A stretch of 64,000 nucleotides of DNA from Cyanobacteria bacterium SZAS LIN-3 (GTDB lineage Bacteria; Cyanobacteriota; Vampirovibrionia; Obscuribacterales; Obscuribacteraceae). This document shows positions 9,542 to 54,001 of the stretch, in pieces. The translations under genes were made by a program, and so were the position numbers. Position 1 is the stretch's first letter; every line of letters starts with the position of its first letter. Below the pieces are notes generated by a model that saw nothing but the letters and a program-made list of their open reading frames with translations, was not told the origin of the DNA and made no database searches. Location: the NCBI GenBank assembly GCA_018266215.1, contig JAFEAV010000023.1, forward strand, positions 760 to 64,759, in the 5' to 3' direction.

Positions 9542-11368
9542 TCAGACATGCAGAGGGACGAGCTCCCAGCCACCGTCTCCGGTCAAGTTGAGGGCTTGTG
9601 CGTGGAAGCTGTCCAGTGAAGGTCGATGACCGACCGAGACATAAGTGGCACCAATAGATTGCAGGGTGCGGTAGAGCAGCTCTTCATTGGCCAGGTCCAG
9701 AGCGCTGGTCGCTTCGTCCAGGAAGACAAACCGCGGTCGGGCGATCAGCAGTCGAGCGAAGGCCAGACGTTGTTGCTCGCCCGGGGACAGTTCATCGCTC
9801 CAGGGGCGGAACATACCACTTTCTCCAGCGCCCGGGTAACCGTCCAGACCGCCCGGATAGCGGCTGGCAAGGAATCCCACATTGGCCTGTTCAAGAGCGG
9901 CAATCAGTGTGGCATCAGGTACAGCGCGGTCGAGACTGGGATACAAGAGCTGTTCGCGCAGAGTGCCCAGGCTCATGTATGGTTTCTGGGAGAGGAACAT
10001 CAAGGACGACAGGTCGGGTCTGTGGACTGTACCGGTGCCCGATCGCCAGAGACCGGCGATGGTTCTGAGCAGGGAGCTTTTGCCGCAGCCGCTGGAGCCT
10101 TTGATGAGCAGACCCGTACCTTGTGGGACGGTTGCCGAGACATTGCGAATCAGCAAACGTTTGTAGTCCGGTGTCATGAGAGTGACATTTTCGACAGCGA
10201 TGGTCTCTCCCACTATCGTGGCAATCGACGTATGCTCGCCGGTTTCGCTGGGATCCTTGCCCTTGAGTGCAGCGAGCAGCCCGGTCAGACGATTGACGTT
10301 GGCGGCAAAGGTACTGATTGTGCCAATCTGCGAGACGAAAATCGCCAGTGCGCCGAGCACTTGCGTGAAAGCCATACTGGCCTGGGCAAATGCACCAATC
10401 TGCACCTTGCCTTGCAAATAGAGCGGCAACATGATGGCCGCCGGCAGGATGGCCACAAAGTAGTCAAACCACGTGGTGAAGAGACTGACCTGCCGCTGAT
10501 ATCCGATCAGTGACAGATTGTTTTTCAAGGCAGCGTGAAAGCGCTTCAGGAGTTGGATAAACTCCGCCTTTTCGCCCTGGTAGAAAGCGATCGGTTCCAC
10601 ATTGTTGCGGATGTTGATCAGCCCGTAGCGGTAGTCGGCTTCCAGTTTTTGCTGGTTGTATTTAAAGCTGATCAGCTTGACCGAGAGCCAGATTGAAATA
10701 ATCGTGCCGGAGGCAGCATAGATTATGACGATGGCCGTAAGTGAAAACGACAGGCCCCACAATATCTGGATAAAAAAGAAGAGCGTAATCACCGCGTCAG
10801 CGACGGCAAGCACAAGGGCCAGTGCACCGCTGACAAATCCATCCACATCATTGGCTATACGTTCGTCGGGGTTATCGACGAGCGAAGTGGCCGCGATGCG
10901 GTAAAAGTTGCGTGCAGCAAAGTACAGCTTGAGAATATACTCCGTCAGCCACTTGCGCCACACGATCGCTAGCAGGCTGCGCAACCAGGCATAGATAACC
11001 ACAATCGGCGCGGCGACAACAAAGATTGAGGCCAGAATCGTCAGGTTATGCCAGGCGGCACTGACCAGGGCGGGATCTTTAGCGGCGTTGGGCAGCGTGT
11101 TTTGGAACGCGCCGTGGGCACCGTTAATCATGGCGTTCATTTTGCTGACGGCGATCAGGAATAGAAAGAGCAAAATGGCCAGGCCCCAGGCTTTGAATCT
11201 TTCCTGGATTTTGAACTTGAGACCGACGTAGGGGACTGTTATTTCAGACAGGTCGCGTGAGGTGAAGAAAGGTCTGGCCAGCTCTCCAACACTTTGCCAG
11301 AGGGCAGCGCTGAATATGCTGGAGTCGATGTTGATGTACGACAGAAACGCTCGTACTCTGGTGCTCAT
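9542..11368 (-). CDS. ABC half-transporter, fused permease-ATPase of the ABCD / SbmA-BacA-like type
   Basis: 608 aa. N-terminal multi-TM domain with the DNPDERIANDVDGF block typical of ABC_membrane_2 (ABCD) proteins. Walker A GSSGCGKSS, signature LSPGEQQR, Walker B FVFLDEATSALD. Confidence 0.8.
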   Translation of the reverse strand: MSTRVRAFLSYINIDSSIFSAALWQSVGELARPFFTSRDLSEITVPYVGLKFKIQERFKAWGLAILLFLFLIAVSKMNAMINGAHGAFQNTLPNAAKDPALVSAAWHNLTILASIFVVAAPIVVIYAWLRSLLAIVWRKWLTEYILKLYFAARNFYRIAATSLVDNPDERIANDVDGFVSGALALVLAVADAVITLFFFIQILWGLSFSLTAIVIIYAASGTIISIWLSVKLISFKYNQQKLEADYRYGLINIRNNVEPIAFYQGEKAEFIQLLKRFHAALKNNLSLIGYQRQVSLFTTWFDYFVAILPAAIMLPLYLQGKVQIGAFAQASMAFTQVLGALAIFVSQIGTISTFAANVNRLTGLLAALKGKDPSETGEHTSIATIVGETIAVENVTLMTPDYKRLLIRNVSATVPQGTGLLIKGSSGCGKSSLLRTIAGLWRSGTGTVHRPDLSSLMFLSQKPYMSLGTLREQLLYPSLDRAVPDATLIAALEQANVGFLASRYPGGLDGYPGAGESGMFRPWSDELSPGEQQRLAFARLLIARPRFVFLDEATSALDLANEELLYRTLQSIGATYVSVGHRPSLDSFHAQALNLTGDGGWELVPLHV

Positions 11369-12144
11369 AAATTTCTCCCGATGTGACCGGGCATTTCGAC
11401 GATTGCCGTACGAACTGTCTCGGTAATTAAGCCCGGGTCAAGACTGGCAAAGTCGTGCAACCAGATCGGTGTGCCGATCGTGACGGTCGCGCCTTTGCGC
11501 CACTTCAGGCCCATGGCCAGATAAGGACCTTTGGCCGTTTCTATATGGCGCCCGTGGTAGGTAAAACGAATCGGCACGAAGCCGATTTTCTCCCTGCGCT
11601 CGAGCTTTTCATATGCGCCGACGGCAATGAGCGAGAGCCCCAATTTAAAGGGCAGGAATTCGCCGGTGGGGCTGATTTTTGCCTCCGGAAAAATGACCAG
11701 TGCTTCGCCCGCACTCAAAACGTCAACGGCCGGCTGAATGGCGGTTTTGCCCTTCGAGCGATCGACTGCAAAGGAGCCGATGGCGCCCATGATGATGGCT
11801 TTCAATCCGCGGATGCCGCGCATTTCTTCGACCGCAGTCATGAAGCGTGGGAAGCGATTGAGAGCAACGTAGAGCAGGATTGGATCGAACATACTTGAGT
11901 GATTGGCGCAGAAGATAATGCGACTTTCGGTTGGGATGTTTTCGCGGCCAATCACTTTGACGCGCCCGACTTGAATGAACATCCAGATGCGGGCCAGAAT
12001 CTTGCCGATATATTGAATCGAGCGCACAGTATGCGGCATGAATCCGCTACTGAGACATTGATTTGCATAACGGCATATGACTCTATATCTGGTGCCGACT
12101 GTAACGCTAAGCGCGCGCCAGTCGTGATGTAATAGGTTTTTCAT
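11365..12144 (-). CDS. plsC: 1-acyl-sn-glycerol-3-phosphate (lysophospholipid) acyltransferase family protein
   Basis: Start at MKNLL, with GAGGAG 8 nt upstream. HX4D motif NHSSMFD and an FPEAKISPTGE block. The stop overlaps the ABC gene start as ATGA. Confidence 0.75.
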   Translation of the reverse strand: MKNLLHHDWRALSVTVGTRYRVICRYANQCLSSGFMPHTVRSIQYIGKILARIWMFIQVGRVKVIGRENIPTESRIIFCANHSSMFDPILLYVALNRFPRFMTAVEEMRGIRGLKAIIMGAIGSFAVDRSKGKTAIQPAVDVLSAGEALVIFPEAKISPTGEFLPFKLGLSLIAVGAYEKLERREKIGFVPIRFTYHGRHIETAKGPYLAMGLKWRKGATVTIGTPIWLHDFASLDPGLITETVRTAIVEMPGHIGRNL

Positions 12145-12212
12145 AGTAAAACTCCTCGCGCTGCCCGGGGACACAAATGCCGTCCTCCGGGAGCGCAGAA
12201 ATAAAATTGGAA

Positions 12213-13121
12213 CTAGCCTTTGCCGGAACCGGTTAGACGGTCCAGTGCGCTGGCCAGGGAAGCCCAGATTTCCGTCGCCCAGAGGCTAACGGAATTGGCC
12301 ATGGCGGCCAGAGATTGCCAGAGGCTCTCCACCCAGGCTGATACCTGCTGTTTGAGTAACGCAAGCCGACCGCCCAACCTGGCGAGCAATGCGCCAATGG
12401 CGGTATTGAGTTTTTGCATCACGGTCGTGAATGCTTGGGCCAGGAAGTTGTAGACAGGCTTTACCAGTTTGACTGCCAGGGCCCAGAGCTTGTCGATGAC
12501 GTTGTTCAGCCTGTGCCAGACCCCCTTTGCCTGTCTGTATAGCCACTCCAGCGCTTTCACAAAGCTTGGCCAGAGGGCGTTAACCAGGCGGACAACCTTG
12601 TCCCAGATCCAGTCGCCGAGTCTCACAGCGTAGGGCCAGAGGAAGCGAACCAGACGGACGACTTTATCCCAGCACCAGGTCCAGGCCCGCTTGACGTACG
12701 GCCGGACGAAGCACCAGAGCCGCCGCAGCTGTGGCCCGATTTTTGTCAGGATTATGCGGATTAAATTCAGTATCCGTCGCACGAGCCGGACAAGTGGCCT
12801 GAATATGACAAGGTAGGCAATCGGGAAGAGGTGCGTGTATGTGAGCACTTTGGCAGGAATGGCCACGGCCAGAGCCCAGAGTCCCAGCACCGGAATGAGC
12901 CAGAAAGCTGCAGCGAAAGCTACCAGAGAGGTCAGGGCTCCCAGCGTTCGCAGGAAGTCGTGGCCCTCATACACTTCTCTGTAGAGTGCTTCCCCGGTCT
13001 TTTTCCAGAGCAGGTAAGGGAGCATTACTGCGCCCATTACACCTTTGGTGATCAGCTCGACTAATTTGAGCAGGGGATTTTTGGAAGAGTGTTTTTGAGC
13101 GTTGTCACTCGTCTCGTTCAT
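12213..13121 (-). CDS. Membrane-anchored protein with a long 11-residue-periodic amphipathic repeat region
   Basis: Start at MNETSDN, with a GAGGAAG Shine-Dalgarno sequence. Hydrophobic helices are followed by about 17 consecutive 11-mers (RLVRFLWPYAV RLGDWIWDKVV RLVNALWPSFV KALEWLYRQAK ...). Confidence 0.65.
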   Translation of the reverse strand: MNETSDNAQKHSSKNPLLKLVELITKGVMGAVMLPYLLWKKTGEALYREVYEGHDFLRTLGALTSLVAFAAAFWLIPVLGLWALAVAIPAKVLTYTHLFPIAYLVIFRPLVRLVRRILNLIRIILTKIGPQLRRLWCFVRPYVKRAWTWCWDKVVRLVRFLWPYAVRLGDWIWDKVVRLVNALWPSFVKALEWLYRQAKGVWHRLNNVIDKLWALAVKLVKPVYNFLAQAFTTVMQKLNTAIGALLARLGGRLALLKQQVSAWVESLWQSLAAMANSVSLWATEIWASLASALDRLTGSGKG

Positions 13122-13239
13122 TTTGCTTCCTCGATGGAAGTCCACATGGAGCGCTCTCCTTAGCACCCCAGGCGAATTTTTAGATTGTCACCACGGTCCG
13201 GTGATGACGGATTGATGTCTGACTTCAATTTTGCTCCAG

Positions 13240-13590
13240 TCAGACTTCGATGCCGGGCACTATCTGGCGAAAATATCCCTTGCCCAGGAGTGATTTTGGT
13301 ATCAGGTGCGATAGCTCACCGGAGTCGGCATTGACTGCTCGCAGGCTGAAAAAATCCTCCGTCACATCTACCACCTCAAAGAACATGCCGCTCAGTCCTG
13401 GTTGTCTCAGCATGCATGCTTCAGCATGATGGCCCGGTCCGTGGTGGTACATGATTTGCAAGATATTGCCGATACTCAGTTTCTTGGAGTTTTGCATTCC
13501 AACATGCTCTCCATCTCCGTAGTATTTCGGGCCCATCCAGTTGTAAAAACGTTCGTTAGAATTATGCATGGCGGCTTCCGATGTCTTCAT
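13240..13590 (-). CDS. Hypothetical soluble protein (last gene of the coupled module)
   Basis: Start at MKTSEAAMHNS. This ATG overlaps the upstream stop as ATGA (13587-13590). No recognisable motif. Confidence 0.5.
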   Translation of the reverse strand: MKTSEAAMHNSNERFYNWMGPKYYGDGEHVGMQNSKKLSIGNILQIMYHHGPGHHAEACMLRQPGLSGMFFEVVDVTEDFFSLRAVNADSGELSHLIPKSLLGKGYFRQIVPGIEV

Positions 13591-13925
13591 CTGATGCCTG
13601 ATGCCAGCAGACTGCCGCCGGCTGCGGTCGCAAACCATGATGTAGCGACTGCCCAGGCCAGGGGGCCTGCTTCATGCAAGACCGCCACACCGAATATTGA
13701 GGACAGGGTCGTCAAAATTGCGATGCCGATCAAAGTGCGGATGGCGGACAGCTTCATAGCCAGGGTTATGCCAAAAGAGAGCAGACCCATCCAGGCAAAG
13801 AATATTGCCAGATGCGTGTCCCATACCATGTTGTAGGTGAAGAGTGCACCGAGCAGGCCCGCTTCTGCTGTGCCGAGGCACCACAGAGCGATTCCCATCG
13901 GGATTTGCCAGTTAATTGATGACAT
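13587..13925 (-). CDS. Small integral membrane protein (about 4 TM helices)
   Basis: 112 aa and strongly hydrophobic. The start overlaps the phosphatase gene end by 14 nt. Confidence 0.6.
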   Translation of the reverse strand: MSSINWQIPMGIALWCLGTAEAGLLGALFTYNMVWDTHLAIFFAWMGLLSFGITLAMKLSAIRTLIGIAILTTLSSIFGVAVLHEAGPLAWAVATSWFATAAGGSLLASGIR

Positions 13926-14619
13926 GGTGGCTTCCTCTATGAAAGTTTTGAAGAGGCGCTTTTTCGTGCGCCGTAGATAGATAGAGCACTTGTTTCAGCA
14001 GTTCATAGTCGCTCGGTTGTCTTTGCCCGCGCAGTTGGAAAACGGCTTCGACTTGCTCGTATGTTTCCACCGCACGGTCGTTATACCTGCTTCGGATTGC
14101 CGCTATCGGATCCGGAGTTTCTTTCCTTGACTCAAGCAGTGCCGCAAGACTGGCCAGAACAGTGCCTGTTCGGCCCAGACCCCCGTCGCAAAAGATGAGG
14201 ATGCGAGCACCTTGCCTGAGCTCGGCTACGATTTCTTCCAGACAGTAGCGGAAGTTGTTGCATACGCCCCCGAAATCGCGCATTGGCACCGCCAGGATCT
14301 GATAGCGTTTGCCGGAGCCGAAGGCCATATGCTGAGTCAGCGGGACCAGCAGGTCGTAGCCTTCGAGATCGCGAGCCGTGAGATACATGCCGCCGGCTGC
14401 CCAGACTTGGTAATCGCCGATTGATACTGCTTTTGGTTTGACGGCCGGGCTGAAGTGTCTGCGCTTTGCCAGGTAGGTGCGCAGTTCATCATCGAGGGCG
14501 GAGTCAGAGGGGAGGTCTGCGATCTTGCCGTCAATTTCCTCTCTTCCGATTGCAAACAAACCGGCAAGTGGAGCCATGCACGCCGCCATTGCCAGACAAA
14601 AAATAGATTGAACATTCAT
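13912..14619 (-). CDS. Cys-based protein-tyrosine/dual-specificity phosphatase-fold protein (CX5R) with an N-terminal signal or anchor
   Basis: Start at MNVQSIFCLAMAACMAPLAG. Its ATG shares one nucleotide with the upstream TGA (TGATG). P-loop ILIFCDGGLGRTGTV matches the C-X5-R-(S/T) signature. Confidence 0.65.
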   Translation of the reverse strand: MNVQSIFCLAMAACMAPLAGLFAIGREEIDGKIADLPSDSALDDELRTYLAKRRHFSPAVKPKAVSIGDYQVWAAGGMYLTARDLEGYDLLVPLTQHMAFGSGKRYQILAVPMRDFGGVCNNFRYCLEEIVAELRQGARILIFCDGGLGRTGTVLASLAALLESRKETPDPIAAIRSRYNDRAVETYEQVEAVFQLRGQRQPSDYELLKQVLYLSTAHEKAPLQNFHRGSHHVIN

Positions 14620-17159
14620 CAGAGTACTCCCTGGCCAGATTCGGCGTTTGAGTTGTTGTCGTTGCATCCGCCCCAGAGGCCGGCAATCAGTCCTTGTTCG
14701 TAAAGAGCCCTGACTTCAGGGTCTAAAGCTTTGTGGAGTGTCGTCAGTCGGGCGAATAGCTTATCGGTGCTGGAGATCGACTTCTTTGCGTCCAGTTGGT
14801 TCTGGAGCAGGTGTTCGTTTGCCTCAGCCATTCTGTGTTTGTTAAAAAGAACGCCTCCGTTGTGTTTGAGGTCAAAAACATGGTCGATATAAATCGAAGC
14901 CGGGACTCTTCCTGCCAGATACTCCCTGGGAGCCGCTGCAATTTGTGACCAGGGTCTGCCGCCAAAGCCGCTGCTCCAGGAGCTGTCGACAAAGGCGTGG
15001 GAAGCCAGGCGGAAGAACTCCTCCTGATAGCTGCAGTTCCTTGCCGCCAGCTTTTTCAATTTTTCCATTGTTGATTCGCCGCAATTACGCAGCTCGCCCA
15101 GGGCTTGCAGTTGCTTGACCTGGGGATTGTTCTTGCGGGCGTAATCCGGCAGCAAGAACAGTTCGGTGTAGACCGCATAAGTCAGGTAGCAGGTCAGTAT
15201 TTCTGCCAGTTGGCTTTCCACGGCTTTCAGTTTTGTGGTAATGCGGTCCTTCAAGGGATGACTTTTGCTGTTGGCCGCCATCGAGCTGAGCAGGTAAAAG
15301 TCGTTGTGCCATTGATTGATGTCCCATATTTGTTCCATCAGCGCCGGCAAGATAGCCGCATCGTGGATACGCAGTTCGGTGCGTTCCAGCCATTCTTTGA
15401 TCATCCGGGTATTGGCAGTAGCCTCGGCGTTTGCGATTGGAATCAGCCCGCGCACTACGATACCGGCGGCACCATCAACACTGACCTCTTGCCCCTCGCT
15501 GATAGTCTGACCGTCGCCAAAAGTCAGCTGATCGCCTTCTATGCGAAAATTGCAGCCCACAACGGCGGGAATATGCAGCCCTCGTGCTACTACCGCAGCG
15601 TGGCTGGTGGTGCCGCCACAGGATGTGATAATAGCTCTGGATGCGAGCATGGCCGGCAGATCGTCCGGGGATGTATCCATGCGCGCCAGGATCACGTCAA
15701 CATCAAAATCCGCCGCTTCCATCGCTTTTTCGATGCTGAAATACAGACGGCCGACGGCCACCTGTGGAGAGGCCGGAATGCCTTGCATATAGCCTTCCAC
15801 CAGAGCTGGTACGATCGCCTCCTGATCGAAGAATGTACAAGTGGTATCGTCGTCCAGAAAGCCGACGCTCATCAGTGCATCTTCTTCAATCCATTCGCCT
15901 TTTGCCACCTGGTTTACGGCAAAGTTGATTGCCGCTTCGCGAGAGCGTTTTGCACTGCGGACCTGTAGCAGATAGAGCACCCCGTCTTCAACAGTGAACT
16001 CAACGTCCACCATATCGCGATAGTGTCTGGCCAGCGTGTTGACGTGCGTCACAAGTTCGGCATAGACATCCGGCATGATCTCAGCTAACCCTTGCAATGA
16101 CAGAGGTGTTCTCACTCCGGCTACCACATCTTCGCCCTGGGCGTTGGCAAGAAATTCACCATAGAGCCCATCTTCCCCGGTAATCGGATTGGCGGAAAAT
16201 ACCACCCCCGTGCCGGAGTTGGCTCCCTTGTTGCCAAAAACCATGGCTTGCAGGATGACGGCAGTGCCCAGGTCGGCCGATATTTCTTCCTTCTTTCTGT
16301 AGGCGATTGCGCGTTCACTGTCCCAGGATTCCAGCACGGCCATGATGGATAAAGCCAGCTGTTCGTAGGGATTCTCCGGCATAGCCCGGCCGCAGCATTG
16401 GACAATAATTTTTTCAAACTGATCGCAAATCAGTTGCAGTTGATCTACGCTCAGCTCGCCGTCATTGTCCACGCCGCTGTGTTCCCTGGCCGTTTTCAGG
16501 CAGTTTTCAAACAGGCTGCGATCCGCGCCTAATACCGTGGTCCCAAACATTGCCAGGCAGCGGCGATACGAGTCCCAGGCAAAGCGTTCGCCCGCCCGTT
16601 GTCCCAGGCCGATTACAGAGTGACGATTGAGACCAACATTGAGAATGGTATCCATCATGCCGGGCATGCTCACTGGGGCACCGGAGCGCACTGAGAGTAA
16701 AAGCGGCTTGTCCTTGTTTCCGAAGGTCAAACCGCTTTGTCTCTCAAGCGACTCTATGGCCAGTGCGAGTTCTCGTGCGAGGGAGGCCGGCAATTTGCCT
16801 CTTGTGTTGAAATAGCGTGAGGCTGTTGTCAGCACTGTGGCGCCTGGGGTACCGGGAATGCCAAGTCTGGCCATTTCAGAGAGTCCCATGCCTTTGCCGC
16901 CACGAAGGTCAGGATCAAAAGAACCGAGGTGTCCTTCGGCAAAGTCGAAAACAAGACGGGGGGAAAGCAGACGGTCGGTGAAGTGGGACACTTTGATCCG
17001 CGCCAGCGGGAGTGAACCGATCAGACCGCGAGCGGCAAGTAGTTCCCGGTAAAGCACCGCGGCATGGCTGAGATTCGACTGAGGAGATTCATTCGTGGTG
17101 CTGAAGTCTGATGATTGCTCGGGCCAGTTAAGTGTAAATTGAGTTGCTGTAGCGTTCAT
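14619..17159 (-). CDS. Pyruvate-phosphate-dikinase-family enzyme with a non-canonical C-terminal domain
   Basis: Start at MNATATQ, with GGAG 6 nt upstream. PPDK N-terminal blocks GGKGMGLSEMARLGIP, MMDTILNVGLN, WDSYRRCLAMFG, GEFLANAQGEDVVAGVRTP and DVEFTVEDGVLYLLQVRSAKRS. Swivel domain TSPDDLPAM...GGTTSHAAVVARGLHIPAVVG. The last ~270 aa lack every PEP/pyruvate TIM-barrel block. Confidence 0.8.
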   Translation of the reverse strand: MNATATQFTLNWPEQSSDFSTTNESPQSNLSHAAVLYRELLAARGLIGSLPLARIKVSHFTDRLLSPRLVFDFAEGHLGSFDPDLRGGKGMGLSEMARLGIPGTPGATVLTTASRYFNTRGKLPASLARELALAIESLERQSGLTFGNKDKPLLLSVRSGAPVSMPGMMDTILNVGLNRHSVIGLGQRAGERFAWDSYRRCLAMFGTTVLGADRSLFENCLKTAREHSGVDNDGELSVDQLQLICDQFEKIIVQCCGRAMPENPYEQLALSIMAVLESWDSERAIAYRKKEEISADLGTAVILQAMVFGNKGANSGTGVVFSANPITGEDGLYGEFLANAQGEDVVAGVRTPLSLQGLAEIMPDVYAELVTHVNTLARHYRDMVDVEFTVEDGVLYLLQVRSAKRSREAAINFAVNQVAKGEWIEEDALMSVGFLDDDTTCTFFDQEAIVPALVEGYMQGIPASPQVAVGRLYFSIEKAMEAADFDVDVILARMDTSPDDLPAMLASRAIITSCGGTTSHAAVVARGLHIPAVVGCNFRIEGDQLTFGDGQTISEGQEVSVDGAAGIVVRGLIPIANAEATANTRMIKEWLERTELRIHDAAILPALMEQIWDINQWHNDFYLLSSMAANSKSHPLKDRITTKLKAVESQLAEILTCYLTYAVYTELFLLPDYARKNNPQVKQLQALGELRNCGESTMEKLKKLAARNCSYQEEFFRLASHAFVDSSWSSGFGGRPWSQIAAAPREYLAGRVPASIYIDHVFDLKHNGGVLFNKHRMAEANEHLLQNQLDAKKSISSTDKLFARLTTLHKALDPEVRALYEQGLIAGLWGGCNDNNSNAESGQGVL

Positions 17160-17697
17160 AGATAGCTCCGATTCCGATTGGAATGTTGAGTTCAAAAAAA
17201 TCGCCCAGGCAGATCTCATCTCGTCAGCCCGCGGGCGAACGAAAAAGGAGAGCGGTAGGCGGGAATGGATAAAAGGTGTTTTTTATGCCGGTTAAAGGAG
17301 AGGAAGTTGTTCTTCCATATTGGCCTTAACTAAACCCTTGTTGGCAAGTGCTATAGAACCCTGTATGGGCCTCGATTAGTGTTTTTCCCAGGACAATACT
17401 TGCCTCTGCTGAAACTGTCTCATTGCGCGGCGCGGAAGCGTGTCGTCGTCGCGACCCTATCGCATTGCCGGTGGTGTCAAATTTCATCACATAGATTGAG
17501 TTGTCCTGGCGCTATTTGTTAGAGCTGGGGGTATCCAATTCATTCCCTCTCCATCCGGCGCATTTCCTTAAACACTGCATACGTCGCTAACTCTCCGCTT
17601 TTTCCAAGCACCTGCCGGTGTCTGTGAGCGGGACTGTATCTGGATAATTTCGTCCTTCAACTTCGTCCATCAACCACCTACAAAAACAGGTATCCCA

Positions 17698-19632
17698 ATG
17701 GAAAAATCAAGAATGAGCTTTGCCCAGCTCTTGCTCAACGTAATATTTATCATCCCCGTCACACTCCGCGTCAGCGGTAAATGGTTGTGCCATCGTGCAT
17801 ACGGTACCGGAGGCTGGGCCAGGACATTACCGGTCGCACTGGTCGGTCTTGCCCTGGGCGTGATGACCGGTTGGCAGGTCGCGGATAGAATTGCCTTCGA
17901 GTTTGCCCCCGGCGCTTTCAGCTGGCTGCTGAATTCCTCCAGCTGGTTTTTAACTTTCCTGCTCGTCGCCTCGCTTGTGTACACGCATGTCTGGTCGGCG
18001 ATCTATTATTTTGCGCTGCGCCATTTGTGGGACTTGTGGGAGCGAGCATGGCGCGCCTATGAACGTATCTGGAAGAGCGTACTGCTCCCGGGCCTTGAGG
18101 CTCTCGTGAAAATCATAAAAGTGGCCCCGGGGTCTACTTATCTCTGGTCGCATCTGGAGGATGAAAACGGTATTCGCTCAAAAGGAATACGGTTGCTGGA
18201 GGTTTTGTGTATCATTGCCATTTTCGGCGCCGGCGGTTATTCAGGATATCTGACCTATGAGCTGGTCTCCGCTTCAGGGCTGCAATTTGTTGGTCTTAGT
18301 GCGGTAGCTACAACTCTGGCTGTTATCGTTGCCATTTCCCTGGTGGGTCTGATCAGCCCCTTGTTTGACAGTAAGGCCTATGCATCGGTGGCTGCTGCCA
18401 GCGCCATGAGCACCTCCGTACTGTTCTTCTTGCCGCCGGCTTTTCTCGGACAGACTTTTGCCATCAAAGCTCTGGCCCTGTTCGCCATGTTCGTTTTTGG
18501 CGTAGCCTATACGGTGCCGGCGCTTGTAATCTTCATGCAAGGCGGATTTATGAAGAAGGTTCTGACTCAATGGAGGCGCATGCTTGATACCGCATACGGT
18601 GAGGAAAGCGATAAGGATTATCAGCGGTTCTTCCAGCACGCCCTCAATATCGCGCTGTCATTTGTCCTGACCTGGATTGCTTACAGCATCAGTATCAGCA
18701 TTGGATTCGCCTACTGGCTTGCCTTCCTGGTCGCTGCCCTGACCCTGGTCTATACCTATGCCGAGGGATTCCAGAAACATCTGGGTCAATCAAAGGCAAA
18801 TACCGAGCTGGCCTTCGTGTCCATCCTCGCGGTTTCCTATCTCAGCTATCAGGCGGTAACAGCATCTTCCGCCGCCGTCGCCTTTGGTCTTTCCCTGGCT
18901 GCCTTTCTGGCTACGGCTCTGATTGCGTATCCTTTCTTCTACATCGCCCTGCGTTTTGTCACCAGACGATTCGTCACCTCTGCCGGCTATGCTCTGGAGA
19001 AAGTACATGCCCGCTTGTCCAGCCGCGTGGTTGCCGCTTTTGCCTGGCTGCGCCGGAAGCAGGATGAAGCCTTCAATGATAGATCCGAGTTTGCCGGTCT
19101 TTTTGGCCATCTCCTCAACGTCGCCATTCTGGCGGCGGCACTGACCCTGTGGATCCCCTCTGCGGCCGCTTATGCGACCAGCAACATTTTCTTTGAGATA
19201 GCGATTTTCGCTTTCGTCTCAGTTAACGGCTTTATCCTATTAGGACGGTTATTCTCGTCCTACAGCGGTGCTACTCTGGGCTTCTTCACTGGCCTGTCCA
19301 CCTTCGCGGCGGTAGCCTATTTCGTCAATGATATGAGCGGGTCCCTGACCATCGCATTGTTGGTGGCCGGCGTTGCCAGCGGTATCGTAGGCGGTGTCGT
19401 CGCCCCGCTCTTCTATTTGCAGGTGGCCCGGCTGCTCGCTCCTTTTACGGCTACTCTGGCGCCGCCTGTTAATCGTGTTTTCAACATTTTGTGGTCTGCT
19501 TATAGGGACCTCTGGATTGCATTCGGGCGTCACTTTGCAGTCGTTCTGGCATTGCTTCAGCCCTTGTTTGCTGCGGTGGCGCGTACCTGGCAAACCGTTG
19601 CCGCGCAGTTGACTCGCCTGTTCGGCGCTTAA
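17698..19632 (+). CDS. Large polytopic membrane protein, function unknown
   Basis: 644 aa, with many hydrophobic helices throughout. Transcribed divergently from the dikinase-like operon. Confidence 0.65.
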   Translation: MEKSRMSFAQLLLNVIFIIPVTLRVSGKWLCHRAYGTGGWARTLPVALVGLALGVMTGWQVADRIAFEFAPGAFSWLLNSSSWFLTFLLVASLVYTHVWSAIYYFALRHLWDLWERAWRAYERIWKSVLLPGLEALVKIIKVAPGSTYLWSHLEDENGIRSKGIRLLEVLCIIAIFGAGGYSGYLTYELVSASGLQFVGLSAVATTLAVIVAISLVGLISPLFDSKAYASVAAASAMSTSVLFFLPPAFLGQTFAIKALALFAMFVFGVAYTVPALVIFMQGGFMKKVLTQWRRMLDTAYGEESDKDYQRFFQHALNIALSFVLTWIAYSISISIGFAYWLAFLVAALTLVYTYAEGFQKHLGQSKANTELAFVSILAVSYLSYQAVTASSAAVAFGLSLAAFLATALIAYPFFYIALRFVTRRFVTSAGYALEKVHARLSSRVVAAFAWLRRKQDEAFNDRSEFAGLFGHLLNVAILAAALTLWIPSAAAYATSNIFFEIAIFAFVSVNGFILLGRLFSSYSGATLGFFTGLSTFAAVAYFVNDMSGSLTIALLVAGVASGIVGGVVAPLFYLQVARLLAPFTATLAPPVNRVFNILWSAYRDLWIAFGRHFAVVLALLQPLFAAVARTWQTVAAQLTRLFGA

Positions 19633-50060: not shown

Positions 50061-50666
50061 CTAAATGGCCATCGCCTGCGCCAGCAGCTTGTCGAAGGTT
50101 CCCTGCCTGTCGCAATCCGTTTTGGGCGGATTGTAGGGCAGTGCTTCGGTGTAGCTGCGAGCGAAATCCGAGGGCACAGCCTGGTCCAGACGCTTCCGCC
50201 AGACCCGCAGCAATTGCTGGCCGCACTTGTCGGGCAGCGGAATGCGGCGCGTGCGAAACTTGCTGGCAAAGCGTCCCATCCAGCCATTGCGGCGAACGTT
50301 CTCGAAGATTTCGACGATCTGCGGAACATCGCTGTAGCCCTCGGGCGAGATGATTACCGGAGCCACCTCATAGCGAAGCGGCATGGTTGTGGCATCCCAG
50401 CTGATCTGACTGCGATCGGCGTAGGCAGTCGGCGTCACCGGCGGTGTGGCGCAGACCAGCTTGAATCCGGCCTTTCCACCCTGAACAAAAGCGATGCGCG
50501 CGCCGGCCAACTCATGCACCTTTTTCGGGTGCATGAGATTGGTCTTGTGACAGCCGGTCAGGCCGAAGCTGCCGAATTCCCAGAAGGGATCCGAGCGCAT
50601 TTCAGTCGGCCTTTCCATGTGCGGCTGCCTGAGCAGCGCAACAATAACAGTGGCGTTATTCGGCAT
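50061..50666 (-). CDS. Hypothetical protein with a conserved-looking DPFWEFGSFGLTGCH block
   Basis: 201-aa ORF 37 bp downstream of the methyltransferase fusion gene. GC3-rich like its neighbours. Confidence 0.55.
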   Translation of the reverse strand: MPNNATVIVALLRQPHMERPTEMRSDPFWEFGSFGLTGCHKTNLMHPKKVHELAGARIAFVQGGKAGFKLVCATPPVTPTAYADRSQISWDATTMPLRYEVAPVIISPEGYSDVPQIVEIFENVRRNGWMGRFASKFRTRRIPLPDKCGQQLLRVWRKRLDQAVPSDFARSYTEALPYNPPKTDCDRQGTFDKLLAQAMAI

Positions 50667-50703
50667 TTTTCGTCCTCCTTCACTTCTTGTTCTTGTTCGT
50701 TGT

Positions 50704-52080
50704 TCAGACTTTCTCCGCCACGATTACACCGGTGGTGTCGTCGAAGGGCAGTGTTTCGCCGGGCTTGCCGTCACTGTCGGCGAAGAGCCAGACGTGGCCG
50801 TTGTAGCGGTTTTTCTCAATCCAGGGATTGAGATAGCTGCTGCAAGCGACCATGCGATAACCGATGGCTGTGAGCTCTCGAGCCCATTCATCGGTCGTCC
50901 AGACGCCAAACTCCTCGTTCACCTCCATGGCCCAGTTGGTCACGTAGTCCTTCTTGGAGAGGAATTCGTTGGCCTCGTGCAGGGTCATGCGGAAGTGTGC
51001 GACGCCGTCGAAGATCTGCTCTTCGTAGACGACGCCGGGCTTTGCCGATTTGCCTTTGAACTCGCGGGCAAACTTGCGGAAGCGCTCTTCCAGCTCCTCG
51101 CGGGTGTTGGTCAGGGCCAGACGAATCTGGTCGCGGTCGTAACCGTTGTAGGAGTAGACCTCGTGCATCACCGACGAGAAGATGGCCGTCGACACCGAAC
51201 CGTCAGCGAAGCGCTTGTGGATGATGTTGCCCTTCACCACGGTGACGTTGTGGTTGGGGTAGTGCTGGCTGTCCGACATGTGCAGCAGCTCGCGCGACAG
51301 ATCCATGCCGACGATTTCCGCACGGGGGAAGAGGTTGGAGAGATGAATCAGGAGCGTGCCGGTGCCGCAGCCCTTGTCCACGATCTTGCCGGCCGTGGGC
51401 TGGATGTGCGGGCAGATGTCCTGGATTTTGACGGCCAGGCTGGCGTCCATGCCCTGGCTGTAGACGGTGAAGTCGCGGCCGTGGGAGAGTTCGCCTTCCT
51501 CGTTGACGAGTACGTCGTCGAAAAGCTCGACGATGCGCTCGACGATTCCCCGGGCCTCGTAAACCTTGCGCGTGGAGGCCGTGGCGATTTTGCGCCAGTC
51601 GCGTCCGCTGGCGATGGCCGCCAGAAGATCGACCGGCAGGGCGCCGCTGGTAGAGGGGGCGACGGCGCGGTATCCACCCCGGGCGAAGTGCTTGTTCACG
51701 TCCGGGTTGGCCGAGACGAGCACGGTGTTGCTCGCGTCGAGCAGGGTTTCACCGGCCGATTCGCGCTTCACCACCTCGATGATGTGCGAGGTCCAGGCGT
51801 CGGCGTCGGTGGCCGATTCGTTGATGTCGAGCGCGGTGTGCACCTCGTAGGGGCGGCGCAGGGCACGGGCCAGGCCTTCCACCACTTGCACGCGTTCATC
51901 GGCGTAGAGGGGGTGGCGCTTGGTGGCGCCCTGCCCCTGAGCGGTGATGACAAAGACGAGCTTGCCATCACCTGCGCTCTTCAGCGCCTGACGCAGAGCC
52001 CGCTCCTGGTCTTTCGTGACGCCGTGCCAGCGTCCGACCAGGAGCAGGAATGCTGCTTGTTTTGCTTGCTTTTTGACCAT
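50704..52080 (-). CDS. Fusion protein: Rossmann-like N-terminal domain (degenerate HIGH nucleotidyltransferase pattern), class I SAM-dependent methyltransferase, and a C-terminal extension
   Basis: Start placed at MVKKQAKQ. N-terminal LLLVGRWHGVTKDQERAL resembles the GRFQPFHxGH context, but both His residues are replaced. Methyltransferase motif I is IVDKGCGTGTLL, followed by VGMDLS. Confidence 0.6.
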   Translation of the reverse strand: MVKKQAKQAAFLLLVGRWHGVTKDQERALRQALKSAGDGKLVFVITAQGQGATKRHPLYADERVQVVEGLARALRRPYEVHTALDINESATDADAWTSHIIEVVKRESAGETLLDASNTVLVSANPDVNKHFARGGYRAVAPSTSGALPVDLLAAIASGRDWRKIATASTRKVYEARGIVERIVELFDDVLVNEEGELSHGRDFTVYSQGMDASLAVKIQDICPHIQPTAGKIVDKGCGTGTLLIHLSNLFPRAEIVGMDLSRELLHMSDSQHYPNHNVTVVKGNIIHKRFADGSVSTAIFSSVMHEVYSYNGYDRDQIRLALTNTREELEERFRKFAREFKGKSAKPGVVYEEQIFDGVAHFRMTLHEANEFLSKKDYVTNWAMEVNEEFGVWTTDEWARELTAIGYRMVACSSYLNPWIEKNRYNGHVWLFADSDGKPGETLPFDDTTGVIVAEKV

Positions 52081-52143
52081 AGTAGATTCTCCTGTGTGGT
52101 AAATCACATCCCGGCGGATGACCACACAGGTCATTTACCGGGC

Positions 52144-53445
52144 TTACTTAACGGTGCCTTTCCTGGGCGCCGCCTTGCGTCGGGGCTTCACCATGTTGGC
52201 GATGAGCGCGTCGGCGAAGGCGGAAGTGCCAAGCGTGGTGGCCTTCTTCATGTAGCGAGCCAGGTCACCGGTGACGGTGCGGGCGCGAATGGTCTTCTCG
52301 ACCGACCTGGTGACGATGGTGGCGGCCTCTTCCCAGCCCAGATAGTCGAGCATCATGATGCCCGAGAGCAGGAGGGAGCAGGGATTGGCGATGCCCTTAC
52401 CGGCGATGTCCGGGGCAGTGCCGTGCGTGGCCTCGAAGAGGGCGCAGTGCACGCCGATGTTGGCGCCCGGAGCGATACCCAGACCACCCACCTGAGCGGC
52501 GGCGGCATCGGACAGGTAGTCACCGTTGAGGTTCATCGTGGCGATCACCGAAAATGTGCTGGACTTGCAGAGCAGCTCGAAGAAGGTGGCGTCGGCGATG
52601 CGGTGATTGAGCAGGATCTTGCCCTCGGGCAGCTTGCCGCCGTGCTTCTTCCAGAGGTCGTCTTCCGAGACCATGATGTCGCCGAACTCTTCGGCCGCCA
52701 GTTCCAGACCCCACTTGAGGAAAGCACCCTCGGTGTACTTCTGGATGTTGCCCTTGTGGACGATCGTCACCACCTTGCGGTCGTGCTCGATGGCGTACTG
52801 GATGGCGGCGCGGACGATGCGGCGGGAACCGAAGCGCGACATCGGCTTGATGCCGATACCGGAGTCTTCGGGGATCTTGTGACCGTGCTTGGCCGCCAGG
52901 GCGATGAACTCGAGGGCGGCCGGTGTGCCCATTTCGAATTCGATGCCGGCATAGACGTCTTCGACGTTCTCGCGGAAGATGACCACGTCCAGGTCCTGCG
53001 GGCGTTTGACGACGGAGGGAACACCGCCGTAGTAGCGCACCGGTCGGACGCAGCTGAAGAGGTCGAAGCGCTGGCGCATGGTCACGTTGAGACTGCGCAT
53101 GCCGCCGCCGGTGGGGGTGCCCAGGGGGCCCTTGATCGCCACGCCGAAGTGGTCGATGGCCTCCAGGGTGCCGTCCGGCAGTGAATTGCCGAAGCTGGCC
53201 CGGGCCTTTTCGCCGGCGAAGATTTCGAACCAGACGATGCGGCGGTTGGCGCCGTAGGCCTTGCTCACAGCGGCGTCGATGACGCGGCGTGTGGCGTCCG
53301 AGATTTCGGGCCCGATGCCGTCACCCTCGATGAAGGGGATGATGGGGCGCGCGGGCGTGATGGGCTTGCCGTCCTTGAACTGGATGACTTCGCCCTCGGC
53401 CGGAATCTCGACACCGTTGAACGTTCTCACTTTGGATGTCGTCAT
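52144..53445 (-). CDS. icd: NADP-dependent isocitrate dehydrogenase (homodimeric prokaryotic type)
   Basis: Start at MTTSKV, with an AAGGAAA Shine-Dalgarno sequence. IDH blocks [61 protein letters not shown] and [13 protein letters not shown]. Confidence 0.9.
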
Positions 53446-54001
53446 AATCGGTTTCCTTTGCAGCACAAAGGACTCGGGGCAAATGGCCACGAGCTGTGTG
53501 CGAGTTTGAGGTAACAAAAATGGTTGTTGTTTTGGAGGACTGTCAGTTCGGACCCAGGAAGAATCCTGAGTAACGCTGGGGAAATAGGGACAGGGTCTAT
53601 GCCGCAGTGTTTTTGGTTTGACTAATGCTCCGGAAGTTGAAAGAAAAGAGATACAGCTCTGAGCTTATTAAGCTCTGGTGGTTTCCAAGCAATAGCTGTG
53701 CTCTAAATATTTACGTGCACCGGCGCGTAAATCTAAGAATTTATGTGGAGAGGGTGAGCTAGCTGCGATAGATTTTGAGTACAGCCCACTTGCGTGGACC
53801 TTACCGGTTCGTAGGAGCCCCACCGTCTATGAAGATTGTTGTTGCGAGGCTGTTGAGCTTGTGTAAAACTGGGTACATAGTCAATGCGACTTGAAGGATT
53901 CCAGCCAAAATGACATTTATTGCAGAGTTATTCGACACCATCCGCGGTCTTCTTCAGGACCTGGTCGAGACACTTGTGCCGGGCCAACGGCAAGTGGCGA
54001 C

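Follow-up and report, generated by a model that had tools for sequence, protein, structure and literature searches.

A dikinase-like protein with a putative all-alpha acceptor domain and its adjacent Cys-phosphatase: a candidate writer/eraser pair of Melainabacteria, Patescibacteria and phages

A dikinase-like gene whose stop codon shares a base with the start codon of a Cys-based phosphatase gene raises a simple question: what might the one enzyme phosphorylate that the other would dephosphorylate? The two genes lie on the minus strand of the window analyzed here, a stretch of 64,000 nucleotides from Cyanobacteria bacterium SZAS LIN-3 (contig JAFEAV010000023.1, positions 760 to 64,759), with the dikinase-like gene at 14619..17219 (866 aa counted from the first ATG; 846 aa from the NCBI start at 17159, 20 codons later) and the phosphatase gene at 13912..14619 (235 aa). 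A preliminary description of the locus had grouped both with two small downstream genes in one co-translated functional module and had likened them to the enzymes of reversible glucan phosphorylation. We favor, with moderate confidence, a smaller conserved unit, namely a two-gene writer/eraser pair in which the dikinase passes phosphate via a C-terminal all-alpha domain and the phosphatase erases it. Given that the pair recurs in Melainabacteria, in bacteria of the candidate phyla radiation and in many phages, we take it to represent an uncharacterized phosphorylation/dephosphorylation module.

The dikinase-like protein and the phosphatase

In the 866-aa protein Pfam recognized only PPDK_N (PF01326, E 7e-37) and PEP-utilizers (PF00391, E 1.8e-21), and residues 89-614 aligned with residues 4-531 of Clostridium symbiosum pyruvate, phosphate dikinase (PPDK) at 413 bits. 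The ATP-grasp nucleotide-binding region (15810..16958, minus strand; approximately residues 88-470) keeps the GGKG, SVRSGA..SMPGMMDT and NAQGEDVVAG motifs. It stands before the phospho-histidine swivel domain (15462..15698, minus strand; residues 508-586), which was delimited by PF00391 and the PPDK alignment and in which the TSH motif is kept and the catalytic His540 (codon 15602-15600) lies within GGTTSHAAVVARG. TIGR01828, the PPDK equivalog model, is matched from position 2 to position 531 of its 865 positions, with a score of 545.6 bits that falls short of the 843.45 cut-off, and the phosphoenolpyruvate (PEP)/pyruvate TIM barrel, PF02896, gave no Pfam match in the window protein. As only two Pfam domains are found and the TIGR01828 match ends at 531, the barrel is missing. 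The rifampin phosphotransferase model NF041857 scored 49.2 bits against a cut-off of 999, with the swivel domain alone matching, and the NCBIfam scores for other dikinase-family phosphotransferases were 49-54 bits against cut-offs of 999-1350.

The place of the barrel is taken by an all-alpha domain of about 250 residues (14670..15362, minus strand; approximately residues 620-850), for which we propose a role in acceptor binding. No Pfam or NCBIfam family matched this domain, and a profile search of PDB sequences with it returned no match. Its AlphaFold2 model (pLDDT 90.3, pTM 0.85, from 37 aligned sequences) gave a best Foldseek E-value of 0.79 against the PDB, with TM-scores of at most about 0.2; the weak, scattered fold matches at that level (heme-oxygenase-like and other helical proteins) were discarded. 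When 1.84 billion representative proteins were searched exhaustively with HMMER, the domain was found in 1030 representative clusters at E<=1e-3 and in 143 at E<=1e-10. A word-index search with the domain alone missed existing homologs that the exhaustive and full-length searches recovered. The domain is nearly always the C-terminus of proteins of 700-800 aa, and in the full-length search the proteins carrying it had PPDK_N and PEP-utilizers and no PF02896, whereas true PPDKs all had PF02896. Invariant residues of the domain, numbered within a fragment spanning 600-866, are Y43, Y79, E87, G155, W158, D180, F183, H187, N188, F193 and K195. The core can be written GG..W..IA ... D.VFDL.HNGG..F.K, or ..VF(V/I)DH.FDL.HNGG..F.KH, and reads DHVFDLKHNGG from residue 779 in the window protein. 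A di-metal site of the ExxH/DxxH kind was considered and rejected, as the His of 'ELRH' is not conserved and the window protein has TELFLL there. The domain also matches phrog_20946 (function unknown) and, as a model, four phage protein models in BFVD at query-normalized TM-scores of 0.54-0.63.

The second gene encodes the P-loop C144-D-G-G-L-G-R150-T151 (14167..14190, minus strand, with C144 to R150 at 14190-14170). This is the FCDGGLGRTGT motif that the preliminary description had picked out, and its C-X5-R signature is intact. A general-acid candidate, D115 (14277-14275, minus strand), is found 29 residues upstream of C144, and D115, C144 and R150 are all invariant in an alignment of homologs. 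The profile of the phosphatase family retrieved DUSP23/VHZ, Tk-PTP, ShufPTP and SsoPTP from the PDB at E 4e-16 to 7e-11, and the top Foldseek matches of the AlphaFold2 model (pLDDT 78, core >90) were ShufPTP, Tk-PTP and VHZ (E 2e-7 to 4e-5; target-normalized TM about 0.7). SDP-1, KAP, PRL and MKP5 followed these leaders in the sequence and fold matches, and neither laforin nor SEX4 was among the matches listed. The protein has no LMWPc (PF01451) match, and its P-loop lies at residues 144-150, not at the extreme N-terminus. By sequence and by model the phosphatase is, then, a class I enzyme of the protein tyrosine phosphatase/dual-specificity phosphatase (PTP/DSP) fold and not a low-molecular-weight PTP (LMW-PTP). 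The alternative of a conventional LMW-PTP/Wzb, raised in the preliminary description, can therefore be set aside. Compared with these minimal phosphatases it has about 60 additional residues at the N-terminus and a C-terminal motif specific to its subfamily, DPIAA(V/I)R.RY..(A/I)VET..Q, and it matches phrog_17568.

The earlier account had further placed a signal or anchor sequence at the N-terminus of the phosphatase. A single hydrophobic segment is indeed present (14542..14613, minus strand; residues 3-26, Kyte-Doolittle 2.29) but it has no basic n-region and thus resembles a membrane anchor more than a classical signal peptide. From its sequence, the phosphatase would be anchored in the membrane by this segment in the lineage of the window. 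In orthologs of one type that carry such a segment (L001 in our numbering of loci), the lysines that follow it suggest a cytoplasmic catalytic domain. A comparable segment is seen only in the L001/L005-type orthologs, and the L007, L010 and L011 types are without one. The proposal that the module acts at or across the membrane is not supported by this distribution, the segment being confined to the window and the L001/L005 clade.

The pair in cellular genomes and phages

Close homologs of the phosphatase (52-58% identity) form only about six clusters, and each one directly follows a dikinase-like gene of 848-900 aa wherever the contig permits a check; in Obscuribacter-like relatives the phosphatase comes directly after the dikinase in all cases. 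To look further afield we surveyed one genome per GTDB species with the alpha domain as the sole query, which yielded 57 loci. An adjacent phosphatase of the same subfamily, on the same strand, is present in 36 of them (hidden Markov model E-values 1e-36 to 1e-71; the phosphatase of locus L055, whose open reading frame (ORF) extends upstream, was counted by hand), and C-X5-R-[ST] is intact in 36/36. The phosphatase gene mostly lies just downstream, at distances from overlap to about 0.7 kb, and the two genes often overlap by 4-14 nt; L047 and one of the two copies in L014 have it upstream instead. More distant PTP-SAK-like phosphatases show no linkage to dikinases. The 57 loci come mostly from Obscuribacterales and other Melainabacteria and from Patescibacteria (Saccharibacteria and Parcubacteria-type lineages), with a few from metagenome-assembled genomes labeled Gammaproteobacteria, Chloroflexota, Binatia and Planktothrix, and several genomes have two or three copies. 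No recurring biosynthetic genes were seen in the neighborhoods.

Clustering of the neighbors revealed a third family, of small proteins, at 38 of the 57 loci, where its gene mostly comes third. Phosphatase and third family are both next to the dikinase at 27 loci, the third family alone at 11 and the phosphatase alone at 9, leaving 10 with neither, two of which are cut by contig ends. Members share the motif F.MAGTEGTGEY ... RVRVEP ... WKQPG..GQ.RFS with the invariant residues G14, T15, Y21, R35, R43, R45, E47, P48, W65 and R75-F76-S77. Many end in one or two 'KLPGAN.ASRWSL.TLRAK' repeats, which gave us the impression, and only that, of being SAP/HeH-like. The family has no Pfam or PDB relative. 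Examples next to the pair are L055:9368-9835, L049:9631-10119 and L011:3982-4338, and fusions of the third family with the phosphatase occur at L009:3852-4814 (the L009/L014 locus) and L046:8715-9575. In L047 the phosphatase protein, of 319 aa, is extended at its N-terminus by a similar length, but the third-family profile does not match this extension.

Two cellular loci are worth describing in their own right. At L007:398-5336 eleven small ORFs (103-147 aa) come before the pair, and further downstream, after three further small ORFs, an Rhs/YD-shell protein with a Tox-REase-9 domain is encoded (L007:10540-11604), giving the neighborhood a polymorphic-toxin-like look. On a soil melainabacterial contig (L009:4984-10301, the same as L014) two paralogous dikinase-like genes of 776 and 766 aa stand in tandem; a stand-alone 182-aa phosphatase comes after the first, and a 320-aa third-family/phosphatase fusion lies upstream of that first dikinase-like gene.

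Phages carry the same components. In GenBank phages the alpha domain is present in 33 records, among them Vibrio siphophages of about 80 kb (VHS1, J26, KarBoss and others), Stenotrophomonas phages and Rhizobium phage RHph_Y1_11. The phosphatase search finds the Stenotrophomonas group of DLP5, DLP3 and Summit, and Rhodobacter phage RcZahn appeared in the phosphatase search alone. The gene order in phages is PPDK-like (about 700 aa), small genes, PTP1, alpha-domain protein (340-480 aa) and PTP2, and PF02896 was not found in the phage PPDK-like proteins. This split form is exemplified by L070:2066-7705 (Rhizobium phage RHph_Y1_11), L071:2616-7508 (Vibrio phage KarBoss) and loci in the series L072-L112, in which L072 and L073 have the fused cellular form together with the third family. 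Over 43 viral loci, 41 from an IMG/VR scan and two from GenBank phages, a PTP gene stands beside the alpha-domain gene in 40 and a PPDK-like gene lies upstream in 30. The phage versions are located among replication and nucleotide genes. An earlier study described the phage PPDK-like gene as an auxiliary metabolic gene interconverting PEP and pyruvate (PMC12038007). Our literature search returned no paper that recognizes the module and none that links a dikinase to PTP-SAK/Tc-R-P phosphatases, and a survey of NAD/ADPr in viruses is silent on it.

Some viral loci have features of their own. A 124-kb viral contig carries six tandem alpha-domain paralogs (L077:3409-11316) with no phosphatase nearby. 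In L080-L112, three conserved small genes lie between the PPDK-like gene and PTP1 (e.g. L112:5898-6883), encoding a CsrA-like protein of about 90 aa (MALSLGV...RLAFEAPR.I.I.R), a Zn-ribbon plus winged-helix protein of about 136 aa and a 'GNRRFH.W' protein of about 100 aa with a C-terminal Zn-ribbon. That the CsrA-like protein might be related to the third family was rejected on an hhalign probability of 0.2%.

The operon in the window

Downstream of the phosphatase gene the window encodes a small polytopic membrane protein (13587..13925, minus strand; 112 aa), to which hydropathy assigns about four hydrophobic segments and which we refer to as the four-transmembrane (4-TM) protein, and a soluble orphan protein (13240..13590, minus strand; 116 aa). 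Both belong to the local operon and fall outside the conserved module. The chain of overlaps reported in the preliminary description is present in the minus-strand sequence. The stop codon of the dikinase gene (TGA, 14621-14619) and the start codon of the phosphatase gene (ATG, 14619-14617) overlap by one base as TGATG (GGGAGTACTCTGATGAATG in the minus-strand reading); the phosphatase gene (stop TAA, 13914-13912) overlaps the 4-TM gene (ATG, 13925-13923) by 14 nt; and the stop TGA of the 4-TM gene and the ATG of the orphan gene merge as ATGA (13590-13587). Shine-Dalgarno-like sites are found at fitting distance, GGGAG before the phosphatase start and AGAGGAAG before the 4-TM start. An identical contig of 7.6 kb is present in the metagenome-assembled genome 'Cyanobacteria bacterium SZAS LIN-2' (Melainabacteria/Obscuribacterales-type), where the NCBI calls match (846, 235, 112 and 116 aa) and have the same overlaps. 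A scan of 13240-14700 for promoter-like and terminator-like sites revealed none. Gene overlaps of 1 or 4 nt are widespread among bacterial operons, and the junctions here are evidence of an operon, not of a functional module.

Both small ORFs have coding-like codon usage, confined to the annotated frame, and the outcome was the same whether or not ORF 50617-53184 was included in the reference set. That ORF (plus strand, 855 aa, with 83% G+C at the first positions of its codons) is itself no gene: it is the antisense shadow of the minus-strand genes at 50704-52134 and 52144-53517. The 4-TM and orphan proteins have no Pfam, NCBIfam, PADLOC or PHROG match, neither they nor the other neighbors in the window have a counterpart in the loci of the nearest relatives (about 55% identity), and metagenome pattern scans, which reach close relatives only, found no relatives of the two. 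Of the proposed co-occurrence of four families, then, one half holds, dikinase and phosphatase being adjacent in distant lineages and phages, and the other half is not supported, nor is the idea of a four-gene co-translated functional module. The two small genes are probably genuine passengers, co-transcribed and specific to the lineage, and operon membership is all that links them to the pair.

The remaining surroundings can be described briefly. An imperfect hairpin (TCTGACT ... AGTCAGA; about 13212-13245, minus strand) begins at the orphan stop codon; since it is not followed by a T-run, it does not qualify as a clear terminator. The same-strand chain runs on at 9542-13166 (minus strand) with a membrane protein of 317 aa whose amphipathic repeats are W/R-rich, followed by a PlsC-like acyltransferase and then by an ATP-binding cassette (ABC) transporter of the ABCD/SbmA type, the transporter gene overlapping the acyltransferase gene by 4 nt. 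None of these three is conserved beside the pair in relatives. Divergent from the dikinase gene, 17698-19632 (plus strand) encodes a 644-aa polytopic membrane protein without a family match. A gene of 681 aa, unrelated to this one, takes a comparable place upstream of the dikinase in the Obscuribacter loci, where, however, it shares the strand of the dikinase. A scan of seven proteins from the locus against the anti-phage defense models of PADLOC-DB v2 gave no match at E<=0.01.

What the pair may act on

A plausible scenario for the dikinase is that the beta-phosphate of ATP is taken onto His540, by analogy with PPDK, and that the swivel domain then carries it to the alpha domain, which would sit at the position of the PEP/pyruvate barrel and hold the acceptor. 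The invariant polar residues of the alpha domain (Tyr, Glu, Asp, His, Asn and Lys) would cluster in D.VFDL.HNGG..F.K, and the adjacent DUSP23/Tk-PTP-like phosphatase may hydrolyze the resulting phospho-ester with C144, R150 and D115, resetting the mark. We think that the acceptor is most likely a protein hydroxyl. Our reasoning for this is that (i) the nearest relatives of the phosphatase are protein phosphatases; (ii) the pair is conserved together with a small protein in which a Thr and a Tyr are invariant; and (iii) fusions of this small protein to the phosphatase occur at some loci. In most relatives the candidate acceptor would be the third-family protein. In the window, which is without that family, the acceptor may be encoded elsewhere, may be the alpha domain itself or may be a different molecule.

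Several observations weigh against this scenario. A search of the whole 64-kb window at E<=10 detected no third-family member, and the closest clade has none either, so the window carries the two-gene form, and only 3 of the 43 viral loci have the family. Since the window, its closest clade and almost every phage version are without it, a third-family acceptor cannot be general. No phosphatase lies within reach at 21 of the 57 genome loci. The Pfam scores of the phosphatase are below gathering: 26.9 against 27 bits for Tc-R-P, 24.2 against 27 for PTP-SAK and 20.3 against 33.5 for DSPc. The hydrophobic segment, if it were a cleaved signal peptide, would place the phosphatase outside the cell and away from the dikinase. 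Finally, DSP-fold phosphatases act also on glucans, lipids and RNA ends, and the fold thus leaves the class of substrate unfixed.

The two-gene pair may also be seen as the minimal form of a phosphotransfer system, widespread in phages and bacteria, that has gone unrecognized, in which a PPDK-type ATP/His-swivel engine would pass phosphate by way of a new-fold alpha domain to a macromolecule and one or two dedicated Cys-phosphatases would erase the mark. We put this forward tentatively, as a reading that we hold to be less likely than not. Candidates for the target in such a system are a small protein dedicated to this role, a nucleic-acid end and the alpha domain itself.

An alternative is that the acceptor is a small molecule: the dikinase would phosphorylate a hydroxyl of a metabolite or toxin, the anchored phosphatase would reactivate it, and the 4-TM protein and ABC transporter would move the compound, in the manner of a prodrug or of self-resistance. 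There is precedent for this in rifampin phosphotransferase, phenylphosphate synthase and the HpeHI kinase, and dikinase-family enzymes with alternative acceptor domains are reported to phosphorylate small hydroxylated molecules (PMC4844700, PMC12167813). The compact invariant polar set of the alpha domain is ligand-pocket-like, further along the operon of the window come a membrane protein, an acyltransferase and an exporter of the ABCD/SbmA type, and the phosphatase has a hydrophobic N-terminus. However, relatives do not keep the membrane and transport genes beside the pair, most phosphatase homologs are without the hydrophobic N-terminus, biosynthetic genes do not recur near the loci, and the phage versions lie amid replication and nucleotide genes. 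The co-conserved and sometimes phosphatase-fused small protein is also better suited to a macromolecular target. On balance we regard a small-molecule acceptor as unlikely.

It has also to be considered that the phosphatase acts on the dikinase itself, on a regulatory phosphate at T538, the Thr of the catalytic TSH motif (as in the PPDK/PDRP system), on phospho-His540 or on a residue of the alpha domain, the whole serving as an ATP-driven switch or timer. Consistent with this idea, the TSH motif is conserved with its regulatory Thr position, the invariant Tyr and His of the alpha domain could accept phosphate, and in phages a phosphatase gene stands on either side of the alpha-domain gene with ends that overlap, an arrangement suggestive of a complex. 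On the other hand, no kinase for the regulatory Thr is found nearby, Cys-based PTPs are, to our knowledge, not known as phospho-His phosphatases, and the third family and its fusion to the phosphatase would be left unexplained. We consider self-regulation of this sort improbable.

The earlier suggestion of a cycle on a glucan, another polymer or a lipid, run at or across the membrane by all four genes after the fashion of GWD/PWD with SEX4/LSF2 or of laforin, fares less well. The pairing of a dikinase with a DSP-type phosphatase is real and conserved, DSP-fold enzymes do include glucan and lipid phosphatases, and in the window the phosphatase has its hydrophobic N-terminus and the 4-TM gene is next to it. 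Yet Pfam detected no carbohydrate-binding module (CBM) in the phosphatase and, at E<=0.1, none in the dikinase (CBM45/CBM20); the domain order is that of PPDK and not of GWD; and the all-alpha fold of the acceptor domain is new. The listed structural and sequence matches of the phosphatase, from which laforin and SEX4 are missing, are led by protein phosphatases. Moreover, the 4-TM and orphan genes are conserved nowhere, the anchor is limited to a few lineages, and the module is common in Vibrio, Stenotrophomonas and Rhizobium phages, in which there is little reason to expect a polymer cycle at a membrane. The logic of kinase plus eraser thus holds as an analogy, whereas the substrate class of glucan or lipid is unsupported, and we give the cycle itself little credence. 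That the protein is an ordinary PPDK of central metabolism with an unrelated phosphatase for a neighbor is scarcely credible: its first two domains share 44-48% identity with true PPDKs and its phage homologs are annotated and discussed as PPDK (PMC12038007), but PF02896 is missing in the window and phage proteins, the TIGR01828 score of 545.6 is far under the cut-off of 843, the replacement domain is conserved and of another fold, and the adjacency of the phosphatase is systematic.

The engine and the logic of the proposed writer/eraser pair are of known kinds, and what appears undescribed is the acceptor domain, the phosphatase partner, the third protein and the spread over phages, candidate-phyla-radiation bacteria and Melainabacteria. 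The dikinase family is small and mechanistically striking, and every acceptor domain added to it so far has brought a chemistry of its own (pyruvate, water, starch, rifampin, phenol). The present branch adds about a thousand sequence clusters with an acceptor domain that has no similar solved structure and with an eraser phosphatase of its own, in the poorly understood Melainabacteria and Patescibacteria. Should the acceptor be a protein, the enzyme would count as a protein kinase that works by a PPDK-type mechanism. Should the broader phosphotransfer system exist, it would amount to a new class of protein- or macromolecule-modifying kinase that phages would use during infection and that Melainabacteria and candidate-phyla-radiation bacteria would use in regulation or conflict. 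The split version is found in many phages, cultured and uncultured, and is now read there as a carbon-metabolism gene; correcting this bears on catalogs of auxiliary metabolic genes. Cultured Vibrio and Stenotrophomonas phages make the function directly testable.

Compared with known systems, the dikinase-like protein has the ATP-grasp and His-swivel domains in common with PPDK (TIGR01828; PDB 1KBL/1DIK) and keeps TSH, but the PF02896 barrel of PPDK is replaced by the all-alpha domain. Rifampin phosphotransferase, PigC/RedH, phenylphosphate synthase and HpeHI combine the same engine with a different acceptor domain, and the window protein differs from them in domain order and in the acceptor domain; the order in rifampin phosphotransferase, for example, is ATP-grasp, rifampin-binding domain and C-terminal His swivel, which is not what we see here. 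We know of no description of any of these four with a dedicated Cys-phosphatase partner. The phosphatase shares its fold, its C-X5-R-T-G P-loop and the Asp about 29 residues upstream with DUSP23/VHZ, SsoPTP of Sulfolobus and Tk-PTP of Thermococcus, and is set apart from them by the extra N-terminal region, the C-terminal motif of its own and the linkage to the alpha domain. GWD with SEX4/LSF2, and laforin, share the logic in which a His-swivel dikinase writes and a DSP-fold Cys-phosphatase erases; GWD, however, has a C-terminal nucleotide-binding domain and starch-binding modules, whereas the pair of the window has no CBM, is bacterial or phage-borne and operonic, and has a phosphatase nearer to DUSP23/Tk-PTP. 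A further comparison is with the phage 'PPDK' genes (Vibrio VHS1 and J26, Stenotrophomonas DLP5, and Rhizobium and Rhodobacter siphophages), which have homologous PPDK-like, alpha and phosphatase components: there the alpha domain is a separate protein of 340-480 aa encoded between two phosphatase genes, whereas in the window it is fused to the dikinase.

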